Source: Chloroflexota bacterium (GTDB lineage Bacteria; Chloroflexota; Anaerolineae; Anaerolineales; DRMV01). Taken from it: a DNA stretch of 32,812 nucleotides. Positions 2,143-32,812 of this stretch are shown here, piece by piece. The notes under the pieces were generated by a model. That model was given only the letters and a program-made list of their open reading frames with translations, made no database searches and was not told the origin of the DNA. The translations under genes were made by a program, and so were the position numbers. Each line of letters begins with the position of its first letter. Positions within the stretch are counted from its first letter, which is position 1. The DNA lies in NCBI GenBank assembly GCA_013153135.1, contig JAADFA010000039.1:1-32812 (forward strand). The letters run 5' to 3'.

Positions 2143-2175
2143 CGGCCGTTCGGCGCGAGAAAGGCGAAGCGATCG

Positions 2176-3972
2176 ATGACCACATCGTCTCCAACGGAAT
2201 TTACGCCCCCGCGTACGTATCGAACGGACCGCCGGAGCCCGGTTCGCTGGTTGTTTTCCCATGCGCGGCGTCATGCCTGGCTTATGTTGCTCATGTTAAT
2301 CGGCGCGCTGGGGAACGCGGCGGGCTTGGGTTTTATTCCGCGCCTGATCGGACGGACGTTCGACCAATTCCTTGCCGCGCTGCCGGAGGCGCCGCGTGCA
2401 CTAAATATCCTGCTCCGGGGCGCGCTCGGGCTGGCTGCGGTTTATTTCATCCGCAGCCTGTTCATGGCTCTGCGCAACATGAGCGCGGAGACCTTGGCCC
2501 AGCGCATCGAGCGCGACGTGCGAGATGAGTTTTATGCCGCACTCCTGGGCAAGAGTATGGCCTTTCACGATAGCGTCTCCGTGGGCGAAGTAATGGCGCG
2601 TGCAACGTCCGACATCCGCGAGATCAACCTGATGTTCAGCCCGGGACTCTCCCTGGTCGTGGGATCGGGTGCATTTTTGCTCGCGCCGCTGCTTTATGCC
2701 GGGCGCTACCATCCGGCCTTGCTGCTCACGCCGGTGCTTTTCGTGGTGGTCTTCAGCATCGTCCTAGCTGTGCTGCTGCGTCAGCTCCTGCCCTTGAGCC
2801 TGGGCGTCCGCCAGGCTTTTGGCCAGTTGAGCAGCCGACTCAACGAAGTATTGGACGGCATCGAGACGGTCAAAGTCCTGGCCCTGGAAGACCGCGAAGC
2901 CGACCGGCTCAAAGTGCAAGTGCGGCGCTATCGGGATTTGGTCGTGCGTCGCGCAGCGGTGGAAGCGCGCTTCTGGCCCCTCTTTCTCTATTCCCTCGCG
3001 ATAGGTCTGGGCACGTTGCACGCGCTGTACCTCTTTTTACAGGGCGCGCTCAGCTTAGGCGACGTGGTGGGCTACGTGGGACTGCTGCAACTGTTCCGCT
3101 TTCCCGCGTTCGTGTCGCAGTTCGCGTATTCCCAAGTCGCATTGGGCCTGGCCAGCGCGCAGCGGCTGCTGCAATACCTCAACCAATCCTCTCGGCTGGA
3201 CCAGAATGTGGGGGGCTATCGAGGTCGGATGCGCGGCGCGGTGCGCTTTGACCACGTGACCTTCGGCTACGACCCCGAGCAGCCCGTGCTGCACGATATT
3301 ACCTTCGAGGTCCAGCCTGGGATGCGCGTCGCGATTGTGGGCCCCATGGGCTCGGGCAAGAGCACCCTGGTCAAGCTCATCCCCCGCATTTATGACGTTG
3401 ACCGCGGCGCGGTGCTGGTGGATGATATCGACGTGCGCGATTGGAACTTGGACGCGCTGCGCTCGCAGATCGCGATGATCGAGCAGGACCTCTTTCTGTT
3501 CTCCAAGACCATCGCGGAAAACATCGCTTTCGGTAAGCCTGATGCCCAGTTTGAGGAAATCGTCGCCGCGGCCAAGCTCGCGCAGATCCACGAAACCATT
3601 GAATCTTTCCCCCAGGGTTACGACACCTTGGTGGGGGAGCGCGGGCTTACACTCTCGGGCGGACAACGTCAGCGTATCGCCCTCGCGCGTGCGTTTCTGG
3701 TCGACCCGCGCATTCTCATCCTGGACGACGCGACCAGCGCGATCGACAGTGAGACCGAAGACCGCATCCAGCGGGCCATCTTTTCGGTCGCGCGCGGACG
3801 TACGACCTTTATTATTACTCATCGGCTCTCCCAAATCCGCTGGGCAGACTGGATCCTCGTCCTGGATAAGGGCTACTTGATCGCGCAAGGACGACACGAG
3901 GACTTGCTCCGCTCGTGTCCGCGCTACCGTCGTTTGTTTGTCCCACCGACGCGGCAGCGGGAAAGAATCTAG
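2176..3972 (+). CDS. ABC transporter, fused permease/ATP-binding protein (MsbA/multidrug exporter type)
   Basis: The N-terminal half is a six-helix-type TMD. Motifs seen are Walker A GPMGSGKST, signature LSGGQRQRIALARA, Walker B ILILDDATSAID and H-loop ITHRL. Confidence 0.9.
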   Translation: MTTSSPTEFTPPRTYRTDRRSPVRWLFSHARRHAWLMLLMLIGALGNAAGLGFIPRLIGRTFDQFLAALPEAPRALNILLRGALGLAAVYFIRSLFMALRNMSAETLAQRIERDVRDEFYAALLGKSMAFHDSVSVGEVMARATSDIREINLMFSPGLSLVVGSGAFLLAPLLYAGRYHPALLLTPVLFVVVFSIVLAVLLRQLLPLSLGVRQAFGQLSSRLNEVLDGIETVKVLALEDREADRLKVQVRRYRDLVVRRAAVEARFWPLFLYSLAIGLGTLHALYLFLQGALSLGDVVGYVGLLQLFRFPAFVSQFAYSQVALGLASAQRLLQYLNQSSRLDQNVGGYRGRMRGAVRFDHVTFGYDPEQPVLHDITFEVQPGMRVAIVGPMGSGKSTLVKLIPRIYDVDRGAVLVDDIDVRDWNLDALRSQIAMIEQDLFLFSKTIAENIAFGKPDAQFEEIVAAAKLAQIHETIESFPQGYDTLVGERGLTLSGGQRQRIALARAFLVDPRILILDDATSAIDSETEDRIQRAIFSVARGRTTFIITHRLSQIRWADWILVLDKGYLIAQGRHEDLLRSCPRYRRLFVPPTRQRERI

Positions 3973-3987
3973 ATTATAACCAACTTC

Positions 3988-4016
3988 TTGACGCCTTTCG
4001 GGGTTCGTGATATTGT
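3988..4016 (+). promoter_or_regulatory. Candidate sigma-70 promoter for the MBL-fold gene (TTGACG-17-TATTGT with TG extension)
   Basis: TTGACG is at 3988-3993, followed by a 17-nt spacer and TATTGT at 4011-4016, with TG at 4008-4009. The -35 element coincides with the TTG that the ORF track used as a start codon. Confidence 0.35.
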
Positions 4017-4065
4017 AAGGACGACCGCAGGCGCGGTCCACCTCGCTACGGGAGCATGGGTGCAT

Positions 4066-4950
4066 ATGTTGCGGGAGCGCCTTTCGGACGCGGTGTATTT
4101 GTTCCAAAGCGAGACGTATGCGCAAGTCAACGCGGGTATTGTGGTTGGCCAGACGGGCGTGCTCGTCATTGATACCTTAGCTCTGCCTGAGGAAACTTTA
4201 GCTATTCGGCGGTTTGTGCGCGAGATGTTCCCCCAGCTCCCGGTGCGGTATGTAGTCAACACCCATTATCACGCGGACCACGCGTGGGGCAATGCGGTCT
4301 TTCCGGATGCGTTCGTGGTGGCGCATCGCCAGACGCGCGAGCGCCTGCGCACGCATGGCCAGGCTTTGTTCGCTCAGGCTCAGCAACGGTATCCCGAGTG
4401 GCGACGCTGGCGGTTGATCTTTCCACACATCACCTTGGACTCTGGGATGTTGCGCCTGAAGCTGGGCCCGCGGCTCCATGTACGTCTGTTCCCCTTGCCC
4501 GGGCACACGCCCGACGGCATCGGCGTGTACGTTGAAGAAGAGCGCATCCTGTTCACGGGCGATGCATTCACCACCATCCCCGCGCTCATGGCTGACGAAA
4601 GCGACTTCGACGCGCTGGTGCATTCGTTGCAGCACATCGCCACCATCCCCATCGAGGTGCTCATCCCTGGCCACGGCGATATCGTCTTCCGCGGGGAGGT
4701 TAAGGACGTTATCCAGGCCAATGTGGATTATCTGCAGTGTTTACGCAAGACTGTGCGTCGCGCGGCTCGACGCAAATATCCCGGGGATGTGTTCGCGACC
4801 TCGTCGGTGGAGGACTGCGGCCTGGATCGGGTGTTGCTCGGCGGCTTGGCCGAGAGCCTACATCAGCGCAATCTTGAGGCCTTGTTGTGGAACTGGTACC
4901 AGCGGGAAGCGCTCCGTTCGGAGGATGAGTTTGAGGATGAATACTTCTAA
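4066..4950 (+). CDS. MBL-fold metallo-hydrolase
   Basis: The HYHADH motif (HxHxDH) is present, with GVLVIDT upstream and later LPGHTPDG and PGHGD metal-ligand motifs. I moved the start to the in-frame ATG at 4066 (GGGAG at 4050-4054) because 3988-4016 looks like a promoter. The original 3988 start cannot be excluded. Confidence 0.8.
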   Translation: MLRERLSDAVYLFQSETYAQVNAGIVVGQTGVLVIDTLALPEETLAIRRFVREMFPQLPVRYVVNTHYHADHAWGNAVFPDAFVVAHRQTRERLRTHGQALFAQAQQRYPEWRRWRLIFPHITLDSGMLRLKLGPRLHVRLFPLPGHTPDGIGVYVEEERILFTGDAFTTIPALMADESDFDALVHSLQHIATIPIEVLIPGHGDIVFRGEVKDVIQANVDYLQCLRKTVRRAARRKYPGDVFATSSVEDCGLDRVLLGGLAESLHQRNLEALLWNWYQREALRSEDEFEDEYF

Positions 4951-5395: not shown

Positions 5396-6292
5396 ATGAC
5401 CCGGGCTTGGCGCCTTGCTCCCCCGCGCGCGTCGTTCCCTCGCCGCGGCTGGCTTGGCTTGGTGTTCATCGCCGTATTTTGGCCTATCAATTGGTTCTGG
5501 CCCGGGCTGCGCACGCATTGGGCGTTCTTCCCCTTGTGGCTTGGTTACGCGCTCACGGTCGACGCGTTGGCCTATCGTTGGCGCGGGACGTCATTATACG
5601 CGCGCAACCCGCGCGCGTACGTGGCGTTGTTCTTCATCTCCGCACCCGCGTGGTGGCTGTTCGAGGCCTTTAACGCGCGATTGGGCAATTGGGTGTATGT
5701 CGGCCGCGAATTCTTCTCTGATGCCGAGTACGCGTTTTGGGCTACGTTGAGCTTCTCTACCGTCATGCCCGCGGTCTTCGGCGCGTCGGAATGGCTGACG
5801 GGCGTGTTCGCGGGCTATCCATGGGCCCGCCGCGGGCCCCGGCTCGTCTTGGGGCCGCGCGGGCTGTGGAGCATGTTCGCTTTGGGCTGGCTCGCGTTGG
5901 CCCTGCTCTTGGCTTGGCCGCGTTATTTCTACCCTCTGGTCTGGGCCGCGGTGTACCTCATCCTCGAACCCGTCAACGCGTGGCTGGGGAACCGGACCTT
6001 GCTCGAACACCTGCGCCAGGGTGATTGGCGGCCGGTGGTCGCGCTCACCGTGGGTGTGTGGTTCACCGCGTTCTTCTGGGAAATGTGGAACGTCTTTAGC
6101 TATCCCAAGTGGGTGTATCACGTGCCCTTTGTGCAGTTCTGGCACGTGTTTGAGATGCCCTTGTTAGGTTACCTCGGCTATCCTCCTTTCGCGCTGGAAT
6201 TGTTCGCGTTGTACCACTTTGTCGCAGGGCTCGCAGGCCATGGCCGAACGCGGTACCTCATCGCGGGCCTGCTGCCTGTGGACGAAAGGTAA
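5396..6292 (+). CDS. Polytopic membrane protein of unknown function with internal repeat
   Basis: The protein is Trp/Phe-rich with multiple hydrophobic segments. The motif E-x-[FW]-N-x(5-6)-W-V-Y occurs twice (WWLFEAFNARLGNWVY and FFWEMWNVFSYPKWVY). ATG 5396 lies 2 nt after the TGA of the upstream gene (5391-5393). The ORF-track start at 5360 overlaps that gene and is less likely. Confidence 0.6.
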   Translation: MTRAWRLAPPRASFPRRGWLGLVFIAVFWPINWFWPGLRTHWAFFPLWLGYALTVDALAYRWRGTSLYARNPRAYVALFFISAPAWWLFEAFNARLGNWVYVGREFFSDAEYAFWATLSFSTVMPAVFGASEWLTGVFAGYPWARRGPRLVLGPRGLWSMFALGWLALALLLAWPRYFYPLVWAAVYLILEPVNAWLGNRTLLEHLRQGDWRPVVALTVGVWFTAFFWEMWNVFSYPKWVYHVPFVQFWHVFEMPLLGYLGYPPFALELFALYHFVAGLAGHGRTRYLIAGLLPVDER

Positions 6293-6318
6293 ACTGGCAT
6301 TTCGCCAAGGAGTGCTCC

Positions 6319-7422
6319 ATGGACATCGCTATCCCTCGAGAACGGCGGCCCGGTGATTATCGGGTTGCGTTGACCCCGGTGGCCGTGCGTGAGTTGACCA
6401 CACGCGGCCACCGAGTTTTTGTTGAGCATCTCGCGGGCGAGGGGTCAGGCTTCTCGGACCAAGCCTATCGTGAGGCCGGTGCGCACATTGTATACAGCCA
6501 TGAAGAAGCGTTGCAACGGGGCGAGCTGGTGGTCAAGGTGGCTCGGCCGCTTCAGGAAGAATTGGAGCTGTTCTATGAAGGCCAAGTGGTCATGGCCTTT
6601 TGGCACTTGGCCTCGGCCCATCCGGCCAAGGTTCGCACGCTGATGGCGCACCGGGTGACGGTCTTGGCTTTAGAGACGGTGCAAGACGACGATGGTTACT
6701 TCCCGGTCTTGCATCCCATTGGCAAGCTCGCGGGCCGGTTCGCCCCGCACTTGGCCGGGCACTTGCTGCGCAATGACGCGGGAGGGAAGGGCATCCTGCT
6801 GGGAGGTGTGCCCGGCGTGCCCCCGGCTGAGGTCGTCATTATCGGCGTGGGCTCGGTCGGGACCGAGGCCGCTCTGGCCTTTGCCAACGCGGGTGCCTCG
6901 GTGTACGCGTTGGATATCAACCCGCGCGCGCTCGAACGGGTCGATCGCGATTCCCACGGCCGCGTGGTCACTCTGACCGCGACGCCTGGCAACGTGCGCA
7001 AAGTGCTCACCTTCGCGGATGTGGTCCTCCTAGCTGTCAACCGTCCCGGCTATCGCGCACCCATCGTTATCACTCGGGACGCGCTGCGCACTATGCGGCC
7101 TCGTTCTCTGATTTTGGACTTTGCTATTGACCAGGGCGGCGCGGCCGAGACCAGCCGACCCACAGACCACACCAACCCGACTTACGTGGTCGATGGCGTG
7201 GTGCACTATTGTGTGCCCAATGTGACCGGCGTGCTGGGTCGCACCGCGACCCATGTGATCAGCAACGCACTGTTGCCCTGGGTGCAGGCCATCGCGGAGC
7301 ACGGCCTTGATGCCGCGCTGGCCCAATACCCCGCGCTGCGCCGCGGGTTGCACCTCCGGGATGGGCGCATCGTGCACGAGGCCCTGAAAGCCCGCTACGC
7401 GTCCGAGGGAGGTTCCGCATGA
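6319..7422 (+). CDS. ald: Alanine dehydrogenase (AlaDH/PNT family)
   Basis: The N-terminus IPRERRPGDYRVALTP and the Rossmann motif VVIIGVGSVGTEAA are present, at about 367 aa. An RBS AAGGAG lies upstream of the ATG at 6319. Confidence 0.85.
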   Translation: MDIAIPRERRPGDYRVALTPVAVRELTTRGHRVFVEHLAGEGSGFSDQAYREAGAHIVYSHEEALQRGELVVKVARPLQEELELFYEGQVVMAFWHLASAHPAKVRTLMAHRVTVLALETVQDDDGYFPVLHPIGKLAGRFAPHLAGHLLRNDAGGKGILLGGVPGVPPAEVVIIGVGSVGTEAALAFANAGASVYALDINPRALERVDRDSHGRVVTLTATPGNVRKVLTFADVVLLAVNRPGYRAPIVITRDALRTMRPRSLILDFAIDQGGAAETSRPTDHTNPTYVVDGVVHYCVPNVTGVLGRTATHVISNALLPWVQAIAEHGLDAALAQYPALRRGLHLRDGRIVHEALKARYASEGGSA

Positions 7423-8845: not shown

Positions 8846-10126
8846 TTACTTGGCCATCTCCAGCACTGGGGGCTGGCTATACCATACGCTTGGGTCGTAG
8901 CGTAAGGTCAGGCCCGCCTCGCCCCGCAGATCCAGGGAATAGCAGATGAGTTGCGCGTGCACGTTGGTTTCCGAGGTGCCCGAGAAGTGGCATTTATCAA
9001 ATTCGGCGCCGCCGGTTACTAGCGCGTTAGGCGCGAAGATGGTGCCCGAAATCGCCGAGTCGGGCGTGCCAGAGATGAAGACCTGGCTGTTGCCCGGGTC
9101 GTTCATGTAAACCAACATTCCGTGCCACTCCTGGCCGTTGGCGTCGACCAGGTGGGTGGGCGCGCTCACGTTGAAGCCCAGCGTACCCTCCAGCTTGAAG
9201 TCTCCTTCGGTGATGTAGAACATCACGCCCTGGCCTTCGACGCGGCCGCCAGTGGCGAGGAACTCGCCCCGCAGGCAGTAGAGGCCGGGCTCCAGGGTGA
9301 CCCGGACGCGGGCACCGGTGATCCAAATGCGGTCATAGGTGCCAGGCGAGAGGGTGACGTCGCCATCGTTGACACTGATGTGGACCGCTCCATAGTCCGG
9401 TCCGGAGCATGCGGGCTCGGGCAGGGTAGGCACCTGGATGGGCGCGACGCCGGTGACAGGGGTGGGCGAGATGGTCCCCGGACCGGCCTGGAAGTAGCCG
9501 CCCACGATGTGGATCCAGTCGCTGCTCACCTGGATGGCGCCTGTACCCCACATGGCTGCGCTGCACGAGGCATTGACGAAGATGCCTCCCTGGACGTCGA
9601 GCTCGGGGTTGCCGGTGACCTTGAGGCCGGGGCACACGTCTTGGCCCGTGGTGACCAGGGTGTAGCCCCAGAACATGGGTTGCGCGGGCCGGGCCCGGCT
9701 TTGCGCTTCGGCCTGGATGCCAGGGTCACCAGGGTAGACGAGCTGGATGAGGGCAGGGGGCACGTGGTCCTCGATGGTGACGGTCGTGTAGTAATACACG
9801 CCATCGGGCTCAGTCTGACGCTCGATGGTGACAGTTACCTTGGTGTCCTCGTCATTCGTGTAGCCATACTCTGCTGCGCGTTCCAGCGCGGCTGTTCGCG
9901 CGGCTTCCTCGGCCGCGGGGCCGATGGTTCCGTCGCTCAGCAACGGTGAGCGCACGATGACAAAGCCCGCAGCCATCGCGGCTGCGTCGGCGGCGCTTTG
10001 CGCGTTCCGCTTCGCGACGTACAACCGACCGCCATCAACAGCCAGTCCGGTCATAGCCAACAAACCCAACATACCAACGACAAATAAAATGATTGCCTGT
10101 CCACGCGTACGGTGTTTCCGCACCAT
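8846..10126 (-). CDS. TadG-like pilus assembly protein (Tad_N / TadE-G-like N-terminus)
   Basis: The N-terminus RTRGQAIILFVVGMLGLLAMTGLAVDGGRLYVAKRNAQSAADAAAMAAG matches the TadG-type signature. I set the start at ATG 10126 because a perfect RBS AGGAGG lies 6 nt upstream on the minus strand. The ORF-track start at 10207 would overlap the upstream tadE-like gene. Confidence 0.8.
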   Translation of the reverse strand: MVRKHRTRGQAIILFVVGMLGLLAMTGLAVDGGRLYVAKRNAQSAADAAAMAAGFVIVRSPLLSDGTIGPAAEEAARTAALERAAEYGYTNDEDTKVTVTIERQTEPDGVYYYTTVTIEDHVPPALIQLVYPGDPGIQAEAQSRARPAQPMFWGYTLVTTGQDVCPGLKVTGNPELDVQGGIFVNASCSAAMWGTGAIQVSSDWIHIVGGYFQAGPGTISPTPVTGVAPIQVPTLPEPACSGPDYGAVHISVNDGDVTLSPGTYDRIWITGARVRVTLEPGLYCLRGEFLATGGRVEGQGVMFYITEGDFKLEGTLGFNVSAPTHLVDANGQEWHGMLVYMNDPGNSQVFISGTPDSAISGTIFAPNALVTGGAEFDKCHFSGTSETNVHAQLICYSLDLRGEAGLTLRYDPSVWYSQPPVLEMAK

Positions 10127-10145
10127 GATCAACCTCCTCATCAAT

Positions 10146-10577
10146 TTAGGGCGTTCCTGTAGGGCAAAGGGCCGACGATTGCAGCACCGTTTGCAGTGCG
10201 TCTGCACTTAGGTGCACCGTACCGTCGGGTACAAACGTGCGTGCAAAGGGAAACAGAACCATGTGATCCGTGCTCACCGCAACCTTGACACGGGCACCCG
10301 GGCACGCATGCCCATCCGGAAAGGTGACGTCTACCGTCACTTCGTCTTCAGGTACTAGCGAGCTGAGGGCATCTTTTACGCGATCTTCAATCCCGGGCGT
10401 ATCTGCGGGGTTGATGGCCGCGTACGCCGCACCCTCTTGAGCTGCGTCCGAGAGTGCGGTGTATTTAAACAGCACAAACCCCACATCTACCACACCCGCG
10501 ATGAGCAATAGAAGTAAGGTGAAGAATAGGGTAAATTCCACTAAGGCTTGGCCTGAGGTACGTCGTATCGTCATCAT
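10146..10577 (-). CDS. TadE-like pseudopilin
   Basis: The N-terminus RRTSGQALVEFTLFFTLLLLLIAGVVDVGF has a prepilin-like G/Q-x-x-x-E-F followed by a hydrophobic helix. The start lies 4 nt after the stop of the upstream gene, and the RBS GAGAGGTGA spans that stop. Confidence 0.8.
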   Translation of the reverse strand: MMTIRRTSGQALVEFTLFFTLLLLLIAGVVDVGFVLFKYTALSDAAQEGAAYAAINPADTPGIEDRVKDALSSLVPEDEVTVDVTFPDGHACPGARVKVAVSTDHMVLFPFARTFVPDGTVHLSADALQTVLQSSALCPTGTP

Positions 10578-10581
10578 GGTT

Positions 10582-11577
10582 TCACCTCTCCAGAAGTCGT
10601 CCCGCCCAACAGTAGTAAAGTCGGTCTAAAGTTTGCGAAAGCTCATCATTGGCAAAGCGGGCGTAGACAGTGATTCGTACGGAATCGCCATGAGCGATTT
10701 CCATGTCCGCGAAATCCCACACGGTGGGATTCGGGTCGGCCGCAGGCAGGTCATCCCAAAGGTAAAAATCCGCGCTAAGCTGGGCATGATAGGATTGTGC
10801 TGGTTGGGTCCAGCTCGGGTTAGGTTCCCAACTCGCGCTTTGGAGTACGCATTGGCGGCCGAGGCTGCGGTAGCCCACGCGCAGGTTAACCGGCGGTAGC
10901 GCGACCGGGGTTGGCGTGTGGGTCGGCGTAGCGGTTGAGGTCGCGGTTGCAGTAGGTGTTGGCGGTGGTGTGGTCGCGGTTGGGGTCGGCGTTATGGTAG
11001 CCGTGGGCGTCGCGGTAGCCGTGGCCGTGTAGGTACTGGTCGGTGTGGCAGTAGCTGTTGGTGTACCTGTTCCGCTCCACACCGCGGGGTGGTCGACGGT
11101 AATTTGGGCCAAGATGGTCCGTTTAGCTGTCGAGCGCAACGTCATCGACACCGAGGGAACCAAGGGAACCCAGGGCTTGTACTCCGCTTCAACGGTTACC
11201 AATACGCGCACACCTTTGGGGTCCGGGATCACGATGCGATCGACACCCGGCGGGCACTCCGCGAACACGGGAGTGTCGGGGCCACGATCGTATTGGATAC
11301 GTATGTCGTCCGGTTCCACACCCACGCTGCGCGCTAAGCGCAGCGCGGCGTCTCGGATACCTGCGCAGTCTTCATAGCGCGGCACCATAGGATCGCGGGG
11401 GCTCGCACCCACCGCGGCTGCATAGCGCGCGGCCTCTCGCGCGCCCATGATGACGGACGCGTACGTCCATACCAGGTGACCGAATTCAAAGAGCCCGGCC
11501 ACGATGAGCAAAACCAACGTGATGACTAGTGCGAACTCCAGTAGAGCTTGTGCGCGCTTAGCATAACGGATCCGCAT
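10582..11577 (-). CDS. TadE-like pseudopilin fused to a Thr/Pro/Ala-rich linker and an extra C-terminal domain
   Basis: The N-terminus KRAQALLEFALVITLVLLIVAGLFEFG is TadE-type. A low-complexity linker of T/P/A spans about aa 168-225 (nt about 10903-11076). It is followed by a unique C-terminal domain of about 105 aa with 2 Cys. An RBS GGGGGAG lies upstream of ATG 11577. Confidence 0.8.
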   Translation of the reverse strand: MRIRYAKRAQALLEFALVITLVLLIVAGLFEFGHLVWTYASVIMGAREAARYAAAVGASPRDPMVPRYEDCAGIRDAALRLARSVGVEPDDIRIQYDRGPDTPVFAECPPGVDRIVIPDPKGVRVLVTVEAEYKPWVPLVPSVSMTLRSTAKRTILAQITVDHPAVWSGTGTPTATATPTSTYTATATATPTATITPTPTATTPPPTPTATATSTATPTHTPTPVALPPVNLRVGYRSLGRQCVLQSASWEPNPSWTQPAQSYHAQLSADFYLWDDLPAADPNPTVWDFADMEIAHGDSVRITVYARFANDELSQTLDRLYYCWAGRLLER

Positions 11578-25802: not shown

Positions 25803-27389
25803 ATGCTGAGTTCGGGGTGGTTGAGCCTTCTGGAAGCGTTGACGGAATTGATCCTGTTCGGCATCACCGTGCCGCTGTTGTTCTTCGAACGACCCGCATG
25901 GATGCGCCTGCTGCGTCGTCGCTATTCCTCATGGCGCCTGTTCCCGTTGCGCTTTGGGCAATCATGGATCAAAATGACCTTTGTCGGCCTGGGATTGCTG
26001 CTCATTGCAACGGTGATGAGCGGGCTCGCGGTGGCCGCGTCCTATTGGCCCGAGGTCCCTTTGTTTGCGTGGCTGCTGCGCCATGAGACGTGGTTTTCTT
26101 TGGCTCGTTTCATCATCTTAGGCCTCGCGATTATACTTATTGGTGTTCTTTGGTACCAGCTTTATACAACTGAGCTCTCCATCCTCGCCCGACGTATCTT
26201 TTGGATTGCACGAGCTTGTTTGAAGTGCCCTCAATGTCAGCCGAAAGTGTATGATTTTGGTTCGGAATCTGGCTTATTCTTGTCCGAACAAGAGATGGAC
26301 AACCTTATCAAGCGGACGGCCGTGCTGCAAGAGGGGCGTCCATCTCGCATCCTCGCCAAGGTGCAGGTGTGGCTGGTATGTCATGGGAAGAGGTTTTTTG
26401 ACCAGATTCGCTATGACTATCGCCGGTCGATTCGGGACTTAGGGTTGCTGGGGCTGAATACAACGATCCCGGCTGAGACGCACAATATCTTGCGACTGCT
26501 TCATATTTTGGCCTTTAAAGTGCCCCTTTGCACGCGATCGCTTGACGGCCAGGATGAGCCCACGCCCTTTGTCCTGCTCTTGGAGGCGGTGCTCAATACG
26601 CTGCGGCCTTTGGAAGCCAGCGATAAAGGGTGTTTTAAGGAGGCTCTGGATACGTTCCACGTCTTGATGAAGCGTTGGCGGGTGGTTGACGCGCTGGCGG
26701 ATATTCCGTCGAGCGAGCGCGATCAGTGTTTCTCAGAATCCCCCTTTGTCATATACCTGGAGCGCTTTGGCGAGCTCCTGCTCGAGCGGGATGACCTGTT
26801 CGATCTGTTTACGACATTTATCAAGCTTTTTGAGCCCGACCGCAACCCCGCGGAAAATAGCCAGGAGATTGAAGCTCTGGTGCGCTTGAGCAAAGGTGCA
26901 TTGGAGCAGGGCCGTTGGTCCGCGCTGGGCGCGGTGCTCTCGCAAATGCGGGATTATCTTATGTATTACACGAAGGCTGATCATGCCCACCTGGCGCGCA
27001 TTTGTTGTTCGACGCGCACCAATGGCCGCGTGGACGATGCCTTCGTCAGCTGGGCGTGGTATTGGGGCTTCGCGGCCCTGGCCTGGTATCGCGTGGCCGG
27101 AACCTGTCCGTGGATCGTGCGTTTGCTGGCCTCGCACGTCCATCACTTGCAGCAAGCTTATAACACGGATTTCGCGACCGCGCTACGCCGTCTAGCCCAG
27201 GGGCTGGATGAGGTGATCCACTTTTTAACCCTGTACACCCTGGAGCCTGATATGGCCGTGGCTGTGTACGCGCTGCAGCGCCATCTGGAACGTCAGGCCA
27301 CGCGTGGGGATTGGCGTCACTTTTGCCGCGAGCGTTTCGACGCCGCGGCGTTACCTGCGGTCCAAGCGGGCGCGGTGGACGAGGTTTAG
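25803..27389 (+). CDS. Membrane-anchored protein of unknown function (528 aa)
   Basis: The RBS is AAAGGAGGGG. The first 125 aa contain three hydrophobic helices. A C-x2-C-x2-C motif follows (C139, C142, C145; TGT at 26217). The remaining region of about 380 aa is predicted helical and soluble, and I recognise no family motif in it. This gene has the lowest coding GC in the window (27/60 in 26101-26160). Confidence 0.6.
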   Translation: MLSSGWLSLLEALTELILFGITVPLLFFERPAWMRLLRRRYSSWRLFPLRFGQSWIKMTFVGLGLLLIATVMSGLAVAASYWPEVPLFAWLLRHETWFSLARFIILGLAIILIGVLWYQLYTTELSILARRIFWIARACLKCPQCQPKVYDFGSESGLFLSEQEMDNLIKRTAVLQEGRPSRILAKVQVWLVCHGKRFFDQIRYDYRRSIRDLGLLGLNTTIPAETHNILRLLHILAFKVPLCTRSLDGQDEPTPFVLLLEAVLNTLRPLEASDKGCFKEALDTFHVLMKRWRVVDALADIPSSERDQCFSESPFVIYLERFGELLLERDDLFDLFTTFIKLFEPDRNPAENSQEIEALVRLSKGALEQGRWSALGAVLSQMRDYLMYYTKADHAHLARICCSTRTNGRVDDAFVSWAWYWGFAALAWYRVAGTCPWIVRLLASHVHHLQQAYNTDFATALRRLAQGLDEVIHFLTLYTLEPDMAVAVYALQRHLERQATRGDWRHFCRERFDAAALPAVQAGAVDEV

Positions 27390-28285
27390 CCCGGCAGCGC
27401 GGTCAGCACCGCGGCGAGGGTGACCCAGGCTAGGTAGACGTTGGAGAAGTGAAAGAGGCGTTTAGCCTCGGGCGCGGTGGGCCAACGCCACAGGCGCCAC
27501 GTTTGATAGAGATAGTAAACCGAGGGTGGCGCGACGAGCAGCGCGTAAGCCAGGCCTAGCCGGGGCCACGCGGCCATGAGCAGAGCCACGAGCACCGACG
27601 CGACGGTGTGCAGCGCGACCCAACGGACCGCGTGCGCGGCTGGCACGCGCACCGGCAGCATAGGGAATCCAGCTCGGTGATAGTCTTCGCGGTAGACCAG
27701 CGCTAGGCTCCAAAAGTGCGTCGGCGTCCACAGAAAAACCAGCGCGGCCAAGGCCCAGGCCGCGGGGTTGTCCCAGTGGCCCACCGCGGCTGCACCGCTG
27801 ATGACGGCCGCGCTACCCGCCGCGCCACCGATGACGATGTTGACAATGGTACGCCGTTTCAATGCCCAAGTGTATACCACCAGGTAAATCAGGGCCCCTG
27901 CGGCCACGGCCCAGCCCAGTTGCGGACGATGCCATGCCGCGAGCAGCAGGCCAAGGCCCAAGGCCCCTGTGCCCAGCAACGCCGCGAGGGCCGCGGGGAT
28001 ATCTCCGCGGGGGAGGGGGCGCTGCTGCGTGCGCTCCATCGCGCGGTCTAGATCGCGTTCCCAGACCTCGTTGAGGGCCGACGCCCCGCCCGCCGCGAGC
28101 AACCCGGCCAGGAGCAGCACCGCCAAATCCGGCCACGCGCGGCCGTGGTTGAGCCACGGCTCGGCCGCCAACACCGCGCCGCCCACCGCGACCACCAAGA
28201 GCAGCGCCACGACCCGAAGTTTAAACAACACAACCGCGCGCGCACCCCAGGCCCGCGCGTCCCAGCTAGGCCGGTTTTGGCTCAT
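27386..28285 (-). CDS. ctaB: Protoheme IX farnesyltransferase (heme O synthase)
   Basis: It has a UbiA-family topology with the motifs NEVWERDLDRAMERTQQRPLPRG and FLWTPTHFWSLAL. The RBS GGGAGG lies 8 nt upstream of ATG 28285. Confidence 0.9.
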   Translation of the reverse strand: MSQNRPSWDARAWGARAVVLFKLRVVALLLVVAVGGAVLAAEPWLNHGRAWPDLAVLLLAGLLAAGGASALNEVWERDLDRAMERTQQRPLPRGDIPAALAALLGTGALGLGLLLAAWHRPQLGWAVAAGALIYLVVYTWALKRRTIVNIVIGGAAGSAAVISGAAAVGHWDNPAAWALAALVFLWTPTHFWSLALVYREDYHRAGFPMLPVRVPAAHAVRWVALHTVASVLVALLMAAWPRLGLAYALLVAPPSVYYLYQTWRLWRWPTAPEAKRLFHFSNVYLAWVTLAAVLTALPG

Positions 28286-28330
28286 ATGGACAGCCTCCCG
28301 CGGTACCCCCGTATCCCATCACCGAGCAGG

Positions 28331-29281
28331 TTAGGCGGCTTGGGAGAAGTCCAACACCGGCTGTTTTTGTGGCGCGGGTCCGGTGATGAGTGTTTCCAGG
28401 GTGATGAACAACCAGCCGAGCCACAGCACGTAGCCCACCGAGAGGTGCAGCAGCTGGACCCAAATGGCGAAGTGCAGGGCCACATTGAGCAGGCCCAAAA
28501 GGATTTGGACACCGTACGCGATAAGCACGGTCATGACCAGCCCATGGATGGGGCTGTGGAATAAGCCCAAACGACGCAAGACCCAGAACATATAGAGCCC
28601 AAGCACCACTGCCCCCGCGATGTGTACAGGCAACATCGCGCGCACGAACGCGGCCGGCCCCTCGTACGCCGCGGGCAGTCCCCCGCGCGCTTCCCAGCGG
28701 GCGACGACCTCGTTGAGCGCGACGATGGAACCCAAGGCACTCTCGAGCCAGATCAAGGTGAGGACATTCATCAACCCACGCACCCAATCTCCTTGTTCTT
28801 TAGGGCAAACGAAGGTGCCGCCCGAAGCCAACCAGGCGGTCATCGCGATGGCCGCGATTAAGAGGTACGTATTGGTCAAATGCACGGCCATGATGATGAC
28901 GCGGCCCCAGGTGAGGTTATCCACCACCCAGTCGAACAGTACCAGGCTGCCGCCCGCGAGCACCTCTGTCACCATGAGGACGAAAGACGCGGCTGCGGCG
29001 ATGCGAGTTGGGTGCCCCGGGGGATATTGCTTGCGGGCCCACCACCAGAGGATGAAGACCATCACGAACGCGGCGGCGCTGGTGAGGCGGTGGGTGAATT
29101 CGACCACCGTGTCCCATTGGGTGAGGTCGGGCCAGATGGCGCCGTAGCACAGCGGCCAATGGTTGCCACAACCGGCGCCCGAGCCAGATGCGCGTACAAA
29201 GACGCCGCCCAGAGCCACCAAGAGGTTGATGGCTAAGGTCCACCAAGCGTAGCGGCCGAAAGGATCGAAGGGTTTACGCAT
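28331..29281 (-). CDS. ctaA: Heme A synthase (COX15/CtaA family)
   Basis: There are eight hydrophobic segments, with conserved His in EFTHRLTS, MAVHLTNTY, LPVHIAGAV and LLHLSVG, and an N-terminal Cys pair GSGAGCGNHWPLC. It sits directly upstream of ctaB. Confidence 0.85.
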   Translation of the reverse strand: MRKPFDPFGRYAWWTLAINLLVALGGVFVRASGSGAGCGNHWPLCYGAIWPDLTQWDTVVEFTHRLTSAAAFVMVFILWWWARKQYPPGHPTRIAAAASFVLMVTEVLAGGSLVLFDWVVDNLTWGRVIIMAVHLTNTYLLIAAIAMTAWLASGGTFVCPKEQGDWVRGLMNVLTLIWLESALGSIVALNEVVARWEARGGLPAAYEGPAAFVRAMLPVHIAGAVVLGLYMFWVLRRLGLFHSPIHGLVMTVLIAYGVQILLGLLNVALHFAIWVQLLHLSVGYVLWLGWLFITLETLITGPAPQKQPVLDFSQAA

Positions 29282-29480
29282 GGTCCTCCTCCGTTGAGGG
29301 GGTTGCAGGGATTTTACTATAGGGCCTGGTTAATGTTGGGTGAGGTTGAGAGCGGAGGGGAGTAAGACCGACTTAATGCGTGTAGCCATAAACAATAACT
29401 AACCCCAAGCGTATTGGGCCACCCACACTCCCATTAGGTTCTCCCCAATCCTTGGAACACCACGCCGTACAGTCGGACGC

Positions 29481-31166
29481 TCACGGCGCGGGAAGGGCTG
29501 CGCAGCGCACGCGATAAATGCGCACGTTCGCCCACGCGATGGGTAGATCGAGCCAGGGCCGCGACGGAGGCGGCTGCAGACCCGGTGGGTTTTCATCTAC
29601 ATAAGCCCACACCGTGCGCCCAGGAGCACATTGCCTTCGGAGAAAATTCGCTTCCCACCATCTCACCTTGCGCGATACACGTTCGACCTGGAGCCCTGTA
29701 AGCACTGGAACCCACGCGCCCCCATCGTAAGCCCAGGTTCCACCCCCGCGCGCGATAAGCACGTGCGCGGGCGGCTGGGCCTGACGGCGCAAGAAGGTTT
29801 GGGCAACCACATCGTCTTCTTGCGCGATGATGGTGACCGGGTTGAGCCAGGGCGGTTTATGCGCCAGCCAGGTGAGCGCACCTCCCAAGGCCAAGGCTCC
29901 GAGCACGACCTGCCCTGCCGCGCGCCACGTTTCAAGGGTCAAGCCCTGGGGCCAAGCCCGTCGGAGCGCCGCGGCCCAGGTAAAGGCCGTCGTAAGCGGG
30001 GCCAAGAGCTCAAAGGTGGGTCGGTCGATCCAAGGCGAGCCGATCCCGGGCAGCCAAGGGAGCGGTGCGTACGCCAACGCCAGCAGCGCGGCCCATCCCG
30101 CGCTTGCCAACCCAGCCCGTCGAGGGCGCAGCAAGTTAAGGCCCACAAGTAGCCCCATCCCCAACCACGCGGGCCGAGCAATGAAGCGCCAAAAGCCCAC
30201 GTCGCGTATCAAGAGCCCGTGCGCGGCCCAAAGGCCATACACCCCCCAGGCGAACCAGAACCCACGGCGCGCGGTCCACGGGCCCATCCACCGTAGCCAC
30301 CACCACACAAGCACGGTGAGCCCAGCCCACAAGGCCACCCGACTATGCACCCAACCAAGCCCCATAAGCAAAAGCCCCGGCAGAAGCCGCGCGACGAATC
30401 GCCGCGCCCGGGAGCTTGGGCCCCAATGTGCCAGCACACCTGGCGTGAGCGCAATGGCCCAGAGCGCGGGGTACTTGCCCCAGGTGAGGCCATAAAACGG
30501 CGTGGTCCATGCCCACGTACCAAGCCACGCAATTAGCGCGGCCAGTCCCGCGGGCGCGCCCTGGCTGCGCTGCAGCCGATACAGCCCCCAGGGCAGAATC
30601 ACGCCCAGGGCCAGGATGGTGAGGGCCAGCAGCCCCATGGGTTGGAAGGACAGCCCTGCCCATAGGGGCCATGCCATCAGCGCGTAGCTTCCTTGGTGAT
30701 AATACGCTACCTTCCAGGGACCAATCCGGAGGATGGCGCCATGGGGAGACACGTCCGGCGGTACGTGGAGGTAGTCAGCCCGAAGGTGCCACGCGTGCAG
30801 CGCTGCGTCGGGGTAGGGAGGCAAAACCAGGCCCGCGAGGGGCGCGAAAGCCCATAGGAGCCCGCCCGCGCTTCCGAGTACAAGCAATCCGGCCGCGAGG
30901 GTAAGGCGATGCCGCCACGCGCGCGCCCAACGCACCAGGCCGATAATCACCAGCGCCCACGTGAGCCCGAGACGTGGGTATGTTGGCCAATCGCGCACAA
31001 GCCATCCCGCGACCCCCAACGTAACGAGCCCGGCTATTACGTCGCCCGAGCCCCGAGTTGTCCCCTCGGGGCTGAGACCACGGGCTGCAAGGTACAGCAC
31101 CCCAAAACCAAGGAGCCACGGGCTCCACAGGAGGAGTTGATGCAGGCCGCGGAGGAAGGTATCCAC
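29481..31166 (-). CDS. Large polytopic membrane protein (561 aa) with C-terminal soluble domain, function unknown
   Basis: The GTG start at 31166 has AGGAG 9 nt upstream. About 12 or more Trp/Leu/Gly-rich hydrophobic segments are followed by a non-membrane tail of about 120 aa. It lies 30 nt downstream of the paralogous exported-protein genes. Confidence 0.6.
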   Translation of the reverse strand: MDTFLRGLHQLLLWSPWLLGFGVLYLAARGLSPEGTTRGSGDVIAGLVTLGVAGWLVRDWPTYPRLGLTWALVIIGLVRWARAWRHRLTLAAGLLVLGSAGGLLWAFAPLAGLVLPPYPDAALHAWHLRADYLHVPPDVSPHGAILRIGPWKVAYYHQGSYALMAWPLWAGLSFQPMGLLALTILALGVILPWGLYRLQRSQGAPAGLAALIAWLGTWAWTTPFYGLTWGKYPALWAIALTPGVLAHWGPSSRARRFVARLLPGLLLMGLGWVHSRVALWAGLTVLVWWWLRWMGPWTARRGFWFAWGVYGLWAAHGLLIRDVGFWRFIARPAWLGMGLLVGLNLLRPRRAGLASAGWAALLALAYAPLPWLPGIGSPWIDRPTFELLAPLTTAFTWAAALRRAWPQGLTLETWRAAGQVVLGALALGGALTWLAHKPPWLNPVTIIAQEDDVVAQTFLRRQAQPPAHVLIARGGGTWAYDGGAWVPVLTGLQVERVSRKVRWWEANFLRRQCAPGRTVWAYVDENPPGLQPPPSRPWLDLPIAWANVRIYRVRCAALPAP

Positions 31167-31196
31167 GCGTTCACACTCCTGACGAGAGGCAGGTGT

Positions 31197-31850
31197 TTAG
31201 GGATAGCTGCCCTCCCCACCCAAGAGCCGCGGTTTCGGTGGCTCTCCTACAGGGATGTCGTTTTGTATCGCGGCCAGTACTATTGGCGGCACGGGGATTT
31301 CATAAAGCATATTATCTTGAATGTAGCCAAGGCGTAGTTGAATGGGCCGCGTGGGTGGCACGACGCCCATACAATACGCGCGCGAGGGCGAGATATCGGG
31401 CAGGGTGATGCAATCGAGGCGTACACCGTTGATTTCAACAAAGAACGTCTCCGGATGAGGAAGGTTTTCAAAAACGTAACGGTAGACCCGCTGCCCCTGG
31501 TAGACCGTCCAGCCGATGCTATATAGACAAGGTTCCTTGATTTCGTACTCACAGTGGCCGGCGAAGGCAAGAGGCGCTGCCGTGGGGGAGGGAGTAAGGG
31601 AGGGTGTCCAGGTGGGGCTGGCGGACGCTACGGTGGGGGATGGTGGCGACATGGTCACCGCGGGTGTTGGACTGGGCTGCGGGGTCGAGCTCGCGGTAGG
31701 CCGAGGCGAGGGGAGGCTCGGCGTGGTCAGGGGTGAAGGAGGGGTTGGGCTTGGGAGCAAGGTGGGCGCCGTGCTCTCTTGGCGGCTGCAGCCCCATAGC
31801 GCAAGCAAGGCCCCGAGTATGACCACAAAATAATGCACGCAGGTTCGCAT
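31197..31850 (-). CDS. Exported four-Cys domain protein, paralog 1 (217 aa)
   Basis: The RBS AGGAGGG lies 5 nt upstream of ATG 31850. The signal peptide ends in Cys (ALLALWGC). A P/S/T linker is followed by a domain with PCLY, VYRYVFEN, FFVEINGV, DCITLP and AYCMG. Confidence 0.7.
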   Translation of the reverse strand: MRTCVHYFVVILGALLALWGCSRQESTAPTLLPSPTPPSPLTTPSLPSPRPTASSTPQPSPTPAVTMSPPSPTVASASPTWTPSLTPSPTAAPLAFAGHCEYEIKEPCLYSIGWTVYQGQRVYRYVFENLPHPETFFVEINGVRLDCITLPDISPSRAYCMGVVPPTRPIQLRLGYIQDNMLYEIPVPPIVLAAIQNDIPVGEPPKPRLLGGEGSYP

Positions 31851-31894
31851 GGTGTCCCTCCTAACGTAAATTTTATTTGCGGCCCATTACCGCC

Positions 31895-32638
31895 CTAAGG
31901 TGTCGACGTTGCCGTCGGGGTTATGGGCGGCGTGTTGGTTGGCGTAAACGACGGCAAGGGGGTGGGCGTCTGGGTTCCGGTTGCGGTCGCGGTAGGTGAG
32001 GGCCAGGGGATAGGCCCGGGTGGGGTGCCCTGGGGAAGCCAGAGACGCATTTCGCCTTGAATCGCGGGCGGAATGAAGATCAACCGTTCATCTCCCCCAA
32101 AGCGATAACCAATACGCAGCTCAGGAAAGAGACGATAGGGCGATGGACCCATGCAGTACACACGCGTTTTGGAGAACTCGGGCAGATAAACGCACTCCAA
32201 CTCCGCGCCGTTGAGCTCCATGAAGAAGTGCCTTGGGTATAAAATGTTCTCGAAAACGTAGCGATAGACGTATTCCTGCTTATATATCATTTTGCCAACA
32301 TGGTAGAGGCAGGGCAGACGCATGCCGGGCTGGCAACGGCCACCGAATCGATACGCGTCGATGGTTGGGGTTGGGGTAAAGGTGGGGGATGGGGTCGGTG
32401 TGAGCCAGACGACCGTCGGGGTAGCGGTAGCCGTTGGGGTTGCACTAGGGCGCGGGGTGGCTGTCGGCGGCTGGGTGGGCGAGGGGCGGAGGGTGGGCAA
32501 CTGGAGCGGTTGCCACTGCTTGGAGTCTGGTGTTGGGCTGGGCAAAAGCGTTGGGAGCGCGGATGGGCCTGTGCAGCTGAGCAGGCCCATCAAGATGCCC
32601 ACAAAAAGGAGGAACAAGCTAAAACGATGGTATCTCAT
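31895..32638 (-). CDS. Exported four-Cys domain protein, paralog 2 (247 aa)
   Basis: The signal peptide has the lipobox-like GLLSC. A P/T linker is followed by the same domain (PCLY, VYRYVFEN, FFMELNGA, ECVYLP, VYCMG) and an extra C-terminal P/T-rich tail. Confidence 0.7.
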   Translation of the reverse strand: MRYHRFSLFLLFVGILMGLLSCTGPSALPTLLPSPTPDSKQWQPLQLPTLRPSPTQPPTATPRPSATPTATATPTVVWLTPTPSPTFTPTPTIDAYRFGGRCQPGMRLPCLYHVGKMIYKQEYVYRYVFENILYPRHFFMELNGAELECVYLPEFSKTRVYCMGPSPYRLFPELRIGYRFGGDERLIFIPPAIQGEMRLWLPQGTPPGPIPWPSPTATATGTQTPTPLPSFTPTNTPPITPTATSTP

Positions 32639-32676
32639 CCCACAGTCCTTTGACGATTCCAGATGGGCTTAAGGGA

Positions 32677-32682
32677 ATTATA
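32677..32682 (-). promoter_or_regulatory. Perfect TATAAT -10 hexamer (minus strand) upstream of the paralog operon
   Basis: The minus strand reads GGGTATAATTCC, about 39 nt upstream of ATG 32638. I see no convincing -35 element. The -35 position falls at the edge of the repeat copy at 32690-32812. Confidence 0.35.
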
Positions 32683-32689
32683 CCCGCAA

Positions 32690-32812
32690 ATCCCATGAGG
32701 ATAGCGGACGGGTTCCGCCGCGGGTGCACGCAAAGGTTGTAGAAACGGCAAGCGCCCTGCGGCCATGGTCGCGCTCGCGTGCCGCCCCGCCGCGGGCTGG
32801 AAGCCCGCGGCT
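32690..32812. repeat. Third, partial and rearranged copy of the 20339-20580 repeat family (runs off the window)
   Basis: GATAGCGGACGGGTTCCGCCGC (32699-32721) matches GATCCTAGCGGGCGGGTTCCGCCGC. CTCGCGTGCCGCCCCGCCGCGGGCT matches CTCGCGTGCCGCGGCCGCCTGCGGCT. A perfect 10-bp hairpin, GCCGCGGGCT-GGA-AGCCCGCGGC (32789-32811), corresponds to the degenerate GCCGCGGGCT-AGA-AACCCACGGT at 20339-20361. Confidence 0.65.

Follow-up and report, generated by a model that had tools for sequence, protein, structure and literature searches.

A compact minus-strand operon in a Chloroflexota genome encodes two tandem membrane-tethered lipoproteins, here referred to as A and B, followed by a polytopic membrane protein, M, which is a divergent relative of the DUF6541 family. 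We propose, with a probability of roughly 0.4, that M is a GT-C-like enzyme that glycosylates A and B on the outer face of the membrane. The operon lies on contig JAADFA010000039.1 of assembly GCA_013153135.1 (Chloroflexota; Anaerolineae; Anaerolineales; DRMV01), analyzed over positions 1 to 32,812 of the forward strand (the window). Little is understood about the envelopes of Chloroflexota, and no activity has been assigned to DUF6541, a sizeable family of membrane proteins; the locus unites within a single operon a candidate enzyme and the proteins that it may act on, and these candidate acceptors carry a confidently modelled new beta-sandwich fold and, at the C-terminus, a simple motif.

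Two tandem lipoproteins with a four-cysteine domain

The three genes follow one another in the order A-B-M with gaps of 44 nucleotides (nt) between A and B and 30 nt between B and M. Each start is preceded at 7–11 nt by its own Shine-Dalgarno-like site (AAGGA for A, GGAGG for B and AGGAG for M), so that the layout reported in an initial annotation of this DNA, three minus-strand genes with these gaps and separate ribosome-binding sites, is borne out. The features are as follows, with L numbers denoting the compared lineages and P numbers individual proteins.

31895..32638, minus strand: gene A, 247-amino-acid (aa) lipoprotein; open reading frame and translation, orthologues in L002 and L003
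31197..31850, minus strand: gene B, 217-aa lipoprotein; orthologues in L002 and L003
29481..31166, minus strand: gene M, 561 aa, GTG start; polytopic membrane protein with about 14 predicted transmembrane (TM) helices, divergent DUF6541 relative
30642..30821, minus strand: candidate catalytic loop of M, aa 116–175, predicted to face outward; LPPYxD120xxxH124 and Y156-H157
29484..29855, minus strand: C-terminal non-membrane domain of M, aa 438–561, about 125 aa, predicted to lie outside the membrane

A and B have the same architecture, with a linker of 65–75 aa between the lipobox and the domain. In A, the lipobox LLSC (Cys22) is followed by a Pro/Thr linker (approximately aa 23–94), the four-Cys domain (aa 95–214, positions 31997–32356) and a Pro/Thr tail with the last residues TSTP; in B, the lipobox LWGC (Cys21) is followed by a Pro/Thr/Ser linker (approximately aa 22–92), the domain (aa 93–212, positions 31215–31574) and a short tail ending in GSYP-COOH, and the B orthologues of L002 and L003 likewise end in Tyr-Pro (-YP). 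The mature part of both proteins opens with (A/L)PTLLPSPTP after the lipobox Cys. This common plan, the sequence blocks listed earlier for the domain (PCLY, VYRYVFEN, FF(V/M)E(I/L)NG, (D/E)C(I/V)xLP and (A/V)YCMG) and its four conserved Cys were all present in our alignments. The signal peptide, described at first only as ending in Cys, could be refined to that of a lipoprotein: a lipobox-like L/M-x-[GAS]-C motif was found in every full-length family representative, and its Cys was invariant in 7 of 7 aligned full-length family proteins. Because all full-length members carry a signal peptide ending in the lipobox Cys, we regard A and B as lipoproteins, and the suggested surface pair thus stands as exported and membrane-tethered. 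Full-length members in general consist of this signal peptide, a low-complexity and usually Pro/Thr-rich linker, a domain of about 110 aa whose core holds the four invariant Cys together with RYVF and NG, and a short tail.

The domain had not been recognized in the initial annotation, and it indeed maps to no known family in Pfam, NCBIfam or PDB sequence searches, with Foldseek adding only a weak resemblance to NEAT domains. Neither A, B nor M matched Pfam or NCBIfam at E ≤ 1 apart from low-complexity noise, and a profile of the four-Cys domain found no PDB sequence at E ≤ 10. An exhaustive hidden Markov model search with the domain profile against 1.84 billion cluster representatives recovered 16 proteins at E ≤ 0.001; the two with the weakest scores were unrelated repeat proteins, leaving about 14 family representatives. 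Pattern scans of genomes and metagenomes contributed one new locus, L007, and otherwise duplicates of known loci. By these searches, the four-Cys domain is a genuinely undescribed and very rare family. Its AlphaFold model, built from 8 sequences, reached a mean predicted local distance difference test score (pLDDT) of 93.7 and showed a seven-strand beta-sandwich followed by one helix. The alignment of these 8 sequences has 29 invariant positions; the four Cys among them most likely form two disulfides, as would suit an extracytoplasmic protein. No PDB structure matched the model at E ≤ 0.001 in Foldseek.

M is a divergent DUF6541 relative

No Pfam model matched M, P0004, P0005 or P0006 at E ≤ 1, and the DUF6541 model (PF20176) was missed at this limit by all five of the closest relatives of M (P0004, P0005, P0006, P0008 and the L020 protein). 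The relationship was apparent at the profile level: an hhalign profile of M and three close homologues aligned with P0007 over 470 columns (probability 99.6%, E = 5e-25), and P0007 matches PF20176 at 6.5e-10 (38.4 bits, cut-off 29 bits). A search with a six-sequence M profile recovered 28 further proteins, 21 of them annotated as PF20176. These profile comparisons make a solid case that M is a divergent relative of DUF6541. M resembles the family in length, in co-linearity over the full length including the C-terminal domain, and in retaining all family-invariant residues; it differs in escaping the Pfam model and in belonging to a short (approximately 560–590 aa), divergent branch with LPPYxDxxxH where the DUF6541 consensus has WVDSxHH. 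We know of no DUF6541 member with a known activity among these polytopic membrane proteins. Literature searches for DUF6541, PF20176 and DUF6798 returned nothing, and DUF1616 was found only by name, in a table of the Haloferax glycoproteome.

Eleven residues (D120, H124, Y156, H157, P223, W229, H274, D452, D481, G483 and W485) were invariant in the 28-protein alignment and all are kept in M. Hydropathy and the positive-inside rule predict about 14 TM helices and place every one of the 11 residues either in an outward loop or in the C-terminal domain. The loop at aa 116–175 comes after a strongly positive predicted cytoplasmic loop (RAWRHR) and one TM helix, and short helices were placed within it (121–132, 141–148 and 162–169) in a low-confidence model of M. 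The C-terminal domain contains the invariant D452 (in QEDD) and D481-G-G-x-W485; the D452 segment showed a weak match to Pfam DUF6798 in 13 family members, and the first ~100 residues resemble DUF1616 in relatives of M. Two Cys are less widely shared: C513 is kept by 19 of the 28 proteins in the alignment, C555 solely by the four closest M proteins.

Several faint signals point from DUF6541 to GT-C enzymes. The archaeal STT3 model TIGR04154 gave co-linear sub-threshold matches in 3 of the 28 family members (E = 0.0027, 0.21 and 0.67), and in two of these the invariant Asp, extrapolated from the aligned segment, falls near profile position ~43, the site of the first-loop acidic motif of STT3. 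One family member matched YfhO below threshold (E = 0.46), and an hhalign comparison of the family with a PMT_2-like 833-aa protein gave E = 0.0015 at a probability of 17%. Pfam presumably places DUF6541 in its GT-C clan, which we treat as a lead and not as a test. We consider M most likely to be a GT-C-type glycosyltransferase. Among the three roles that had been suggested for M (modification, export and anchoring), modification is the most plausible because M is a divergent DUF6541 protein.

The lipoprotein-M linkage is conserved and the A/B duplication is old

The idea that the lipoproteins are functionally tied to the downstream membrane protein was supported by gene order. In six lineages (the window, L002, L003, L004, L016 and L020), a lipoprotein gene was found directly upstream of an M-like gene and in the same orientation, always with the lipoprotein first, in the following arrangements:

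Window, L002, L003: A, B, M
L004: B-like, M
L016: P0014, M fragment
L020: P0013, M

The M proteins of the five other linked lineages share 79% (L002), 45% (L003), 33%, ~31% and 29% identity with M of the window. The intergenic gaps measure 30–105 nt, which is consistent with co-transcription. Conservation of the linkage holds in part: the three-gene order is kept in related genomes but is not universal, as four lineages (L001/L006/L014, L007/L015, L018/L019 and L021) have a lipoprotein gene with no adjacent M.

It might be argued that the genes are not coupled in function at all and are neighbors by descent within a narrow clade, since every locus comes from one phylum, several come from related metagenome-assembled genomes, and the lipoprotein stands alone in the four lineages just listed. 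We regard this as highly improbable, given that the adjacency persists at 29–33% M identity among wholly different flanking genes, that the intergenic gaps would allow a common transcript, and that the C-terminal -YP tail correlates with adjacency (see below).

The loci with a lone lipoprotein have other neighbors. In L001 (3684–7082, and also in L006), the lone four-Cys lipoprotein has, two genes upstream, a gene for a 1132-aa fusion of a PMT_2 glycosyltransferase module with NHL-repeat beta-propellers. In L018, the family member is the distant P0019; two genes upstream of it, an 833-aa polytopic protein is encoded that matches PMT_2 below threshold (1631–4132), and directly downstream lies a gene for an LCP (LytR_cpsA_psr) wall-polymer ligase (5904–6740) with a P/T/S-rich (Pro, Thr and Ser) stretch of its own.

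The initial annotation had taken A and B for a recent duplication, which our analysis does not uphold. The two proteins share 36% identity over 204 residues (E = 1e-37, far beyond chance), and their domains alone are ~38% identical; A and its L002 orthologue, by comparison, are 95% identical in the domain. A maximum-likelihood tree built on the domains placed the A copies from the window, L002 and L003 in one clade (support 100/99), on a long branch and with a Pro/Thr C-terminal tail, and the B copies of the same three genomes, which end in -YP, in a separate clade (support 88/87). As each clade holds copies from all three genomes, the duplication antedates the separation of genomes that share only 45% identity in M, and on this sequence evidence it is old.

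Neighbors of other DUF6541 genes and the Tyr-Pro terminus

Tethered proteins with disordered stretches were also encoded beside DUF6541 genes elsewhere. In L010–L013, a TM-anchored protein of 229 or 246 aa with a low-complexity, Pro-rich extracytoplasmic part lies directly upstream of DUF6541; the L010 (5236–5925) and L012 (5236–5976) copies are homologous and begin with a TM anchor, which is followed by a short conserved segment and then by a long, low-complexity Pro-rich tail (Pro/Thr-rich in L010). The small-protein gene and DUF6541 belong to a conserved block that further contains dnaG, rpoD and a receiver-dCache-guanylate cyclase gene. In L008 (1963–3333) and L009 (3443–4786), whose DUF6541-like proteins are nearest to the M branch, a protein of ~450 aa with fn3/Ig_Rha78A_N-like and SH3_3 domains lies directly downstream, and the L009 copy has a lipobox signal peptide, a Pro/Thr-rich linker and many Cys. 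Over all loci, a 40-aa window with at least 60% P/T/S occurs in 16 of 123 genes, and 11 of these 16 encode family members or the L010 DUF6541 neighbor; the background amounts to ~5 of ~107 unrelated neighboring genes with a comparable stretch. The common denominator of the DUF6541 neighbors is therefore a tether and a disordered stalk, not the four-Cys domain. Because this combination is shared by unrelated proteins, we prefer to see them as substrates of the enzyme and not as its subunits, though not strongly.

The C-terminus of the lipoproteins follows the linkage closely. All six M-adjacent B-type proteins (window, L002, L003, L004, P0014 and P0013) end in -YP, compared with none of the four non-adjacent lineages, which end in -LGP, -PAP, -GTP and -PAG. 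P0011, P0012 and P0017, which fall outside this adjacency comparison, also end in -YP, and so does the unrelated Pro/Thr-rich protein upstream of DUF6541 in L010 (PPGYP). In P0013 (L020, 385–1125), the linker is acidic instead of Pro/Thr-rich and carries five tandem internal (E/G/A)YPA(D/N) repeats that echo the terminus. With no TM helix following it, the motif is unlike known C-terminal sorting signals, and to our knowledge none of these looks like a -YP tail. We flag it as the most interesting unexplained feature of the locus.

One explanation would make Tyr-Pro-COOH a dedicated recognition or modification tag of M's DUF6541 branch, with M acting on the tail itself. M could then glycosylate the Tyr, or join the C-terminus to a wall polymer and so pin the protein at both ends. 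Tyr-linked S-layer glycans occur in some Firmicutes. We consider such a tag unlikely; if real, it would form with M a new tag-plus-enzyme system for sorting or modification in monoderm-like Chloroflexota.

The same observations bear on another interpretation, somewhat less probable than the glycosylation proposal, according to which the lipoproteins are partners of M and not its substrates. Here the beta-sandwich and the -YP terminus would bind to M, either on its outer face or on its C-terminal domain, in a two- or three-part machine. The real substrate of this machine would be something else, be it a wall polymer, a glycolipid or some other protein, or the machine may be no transferase at all. 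The tight and conserved adjacency with the small gene always first, the strict correlation of -YP with M adjacency, and the 29 invariant domain positions among 8 sequences, which suit a specific protein interface, would all be expected of a subunit. The partner role is harder to reconcile with the homologous lipoproteins that occur with no adjacent M, and with the unrelated small proteins adjoining different DUF6541 subfamilies, since what these have in common, a membrane tether and a Pro/Thr-rich stretch, is better understood as a substrate feature.

Proposed mechanism

In the glycosylation mechanism that we favor, A and B would each present a small, disulfide-stabilized beta-sandwich on a long Pro/Thr-rich stalk tethered to the membrane, and M would be a polytopic enzyme whose conserved Asp and His residues face the outside. 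M would take a sugar from a polyprenyl-phosphate carrier, the lipid-linked donor being our assumption, and transfer it on the outer face of the membrane to Thr or Ser residues in the stalks of the co-encoded lipoproteins, its presumed acceptors; the C-terminal Tyr-Pro may be a further transfer site. Glycosylation would stiffen the stalks and shield them from proteolysis. The conserved linkage, the membership of M in DUF6541, the faint GT-C signals, the tethered low-complexity neighbors and the -YP terminus are concordant with this mechanism.

Several observations weigh against it. M, searched as a single sequence and in profiles with its family, had no significant match to any characterized glycosyltransferase or solved structure in Pfam, NCBIfam or PDB, and the STT3, YfhO and PMT_2 signals all lie under their family thresholds. 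The AlphaFold model of M (4 sequences) reached a pLDDT of only 43, with the C-terminal domain alone at 60–85, and its Foldseek matches were noise, so that the GT-C fold is a conjecture about M. The invariant Asp, D120, follows the fourth predicted TM helix, compared with the first in canonical GT-C enzymes, and a GT-C assignment must therefore take helices 1–3 as an added DUF1616-like module. The 32.8-kb window contains no polyprenyl-phosphate sugar synthase or other sugar gene, and no sugar-pathway gene lies near the locus. The lipoprotein also occurs in four lineages with no adjacent M, and adjacency as such suits a partner subunit as well as a substrate.

The proposed activity has counterparts in known systems. 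A membrane glycosyltransferase encoded together with its surface protein is a known theme, and the locus may be a new variation on it. The actinobacterial protein O-mannosyltransferase Pmt (GT39) mannosylates Pro/Thr-rich stretches of exported lipoproteins. Like M as proposed, it is polytopic, has an outward acidic loop, here with a loosely similar "D-x-x-H ... aromatic-H" pattern, and acts on Thr/Ser in Pro/Thr-rich lipoprotein linkers. Unlike M, Pmt is a housekeeping enzyme not encoded beside its substrates; M in turn has no PMT or PMT_2 Pfam match and no MIR domain, and its C-terminal domain differs. In the streptococcal system, low-complexity regions that membrane-associated proteins expose outside the cytoplasm are modified by a membrane glycosyltransferase and thereby shielded from proteolysis, as we propose for M, but no sequence relationship to M was detected, the window contains no GtrB-like synthase, and the streptococcal substrates are scattered in the genome whereas A and B are co-operonic with M. 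The oligosaccharyltransferases STT3/AglB/PglB (GT66) share with M a multi-TM core followed by an outside C-terminal domain that starts with conserved acidic and aromatic motifs, and are linked to DUF6541 by the three co-linear TIGR04154 matches; these matches reach 16 bits against a cut-off of 450, however, M has neither a WWDYG motif nor a PDB match, and the likely acceptors here abound in Thr and Pro instead of N-x-S/T sequons.

If M does glycosylate A and B, DUF6541 gains a function, and a dedicated enzyme-substrate operon would join the known bacterial routes of glycosylating disordered surface linkers. Should glycosylation not be demonstrated, what remains is a rare orphan domain family, cleanly described.

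The beta-sandwich domain and the heme A synthase neighborhood

The genes that follow M in the window could point to a different context, that of building a respiratory oxidase:

28331..29281, minus strand: ctaA (heme A synthase), PF02628 at 2.9e-20; 199 nt downstream of M
27386..28285, minus strand: ctaB (heme O synthase), TIGR01473 at 1.2e-69, above cut-off; 45 nt after ctaA

On this basis, the lipoproteins could handle heme or copper on the outer side of the membrane for a heme-copper oxidase that receives its heme A through ctaA and ctaB, and M would help in assembly or transport. M is succeeded by ctaA in the window, L002 and L003; in the window and L002, ctaB comes next (the L003 sequence stops just past ctaA). 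The best Foldseek matches of the domain were the heme-binding NEAT domains, with probabilities up to 0.97, its four invariant Cys could bind a metal, and in L001 a CcmC-like heme-handling gene lies three genes downstream of the lone lipoprotein. We nevertheless judge an oxidase role improbable. The three genomes with ctaA after M are more closely related to one another than to the rest, and no other lineage shares this order; in L004, the lipoprotein-M pair is kept with a convergent queA where ctaA sits in the other three; the M-ctaA gap measures 199–335 nt in two of the three genomes; and other DUF6541 loci show no common respiratory theme. The adjacency of ctaA and ctaB is probably inherited synteny.

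The domain itself offered no closer tie to heme or copper. It resembles the NEAT domains of IsdA, IsdB, IsdC, IsdH and IsdX1 in being a small, surface-tethered beta-sandwich, but the matches are weak (E 0.05–0.2, TM-score 0.31–0.42), the NEAT domains have none of the four invariant Cys, and the NEAT sequence model in Pfam did not match A or B at E ≤ 1. The Tyr of the LRxGY motif, the putative heme ligand, gives way to Trp in L004 and L001, two of the 8 sequences, and it lacks the second conserved Tyr downstream that the YxxxY heme-ligand pattern would require. Because the NEAT sequence model is unmatched and the putative ligand Tyr is not conserved, we read the likeness as a generic Ig-like resemblance and reject a NEAT-like heme-binding role. 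Copper chaperones of the oxidase (Sco, PCuAC, Cox11/CtaG and YtkA/CtaK) were likewise rejected, as neither Pfam nor NCBIfam gave a match to them and the domain conserves no His or Met.

Other features of the window

A candidate promoter element lies ahead of the operon:

32677..32682, minus strand: TATAAT hexamer, 39 nt upstream of the start of A; possible -10 element

A consensus promoter scan of positions 27000–32812 found no -35 element matching this hexamer and no complete sigma-70 site. The other genes of the window are housekeeping genes and include glmS, an ABC transporter, tadE/G-like genes, tgt, lexA, holB and a kinase-receiver pair. The TadG/TadE-like pilus-assembly pseudopilin genes occupy positions 8846–11577 on the minus strand, and one of their products, a 331-aa TadE-like protein, also has a P/T/S-rich stretch. 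At the far end of the ctaA-ctaB pair, the stop of ctaB overlaps by 4 nt (27386–27389) with that of a convergent plus-strand gene for a 528-aa orphan membrane protein (25803–27389), which leaves no space for a terminator between the two.

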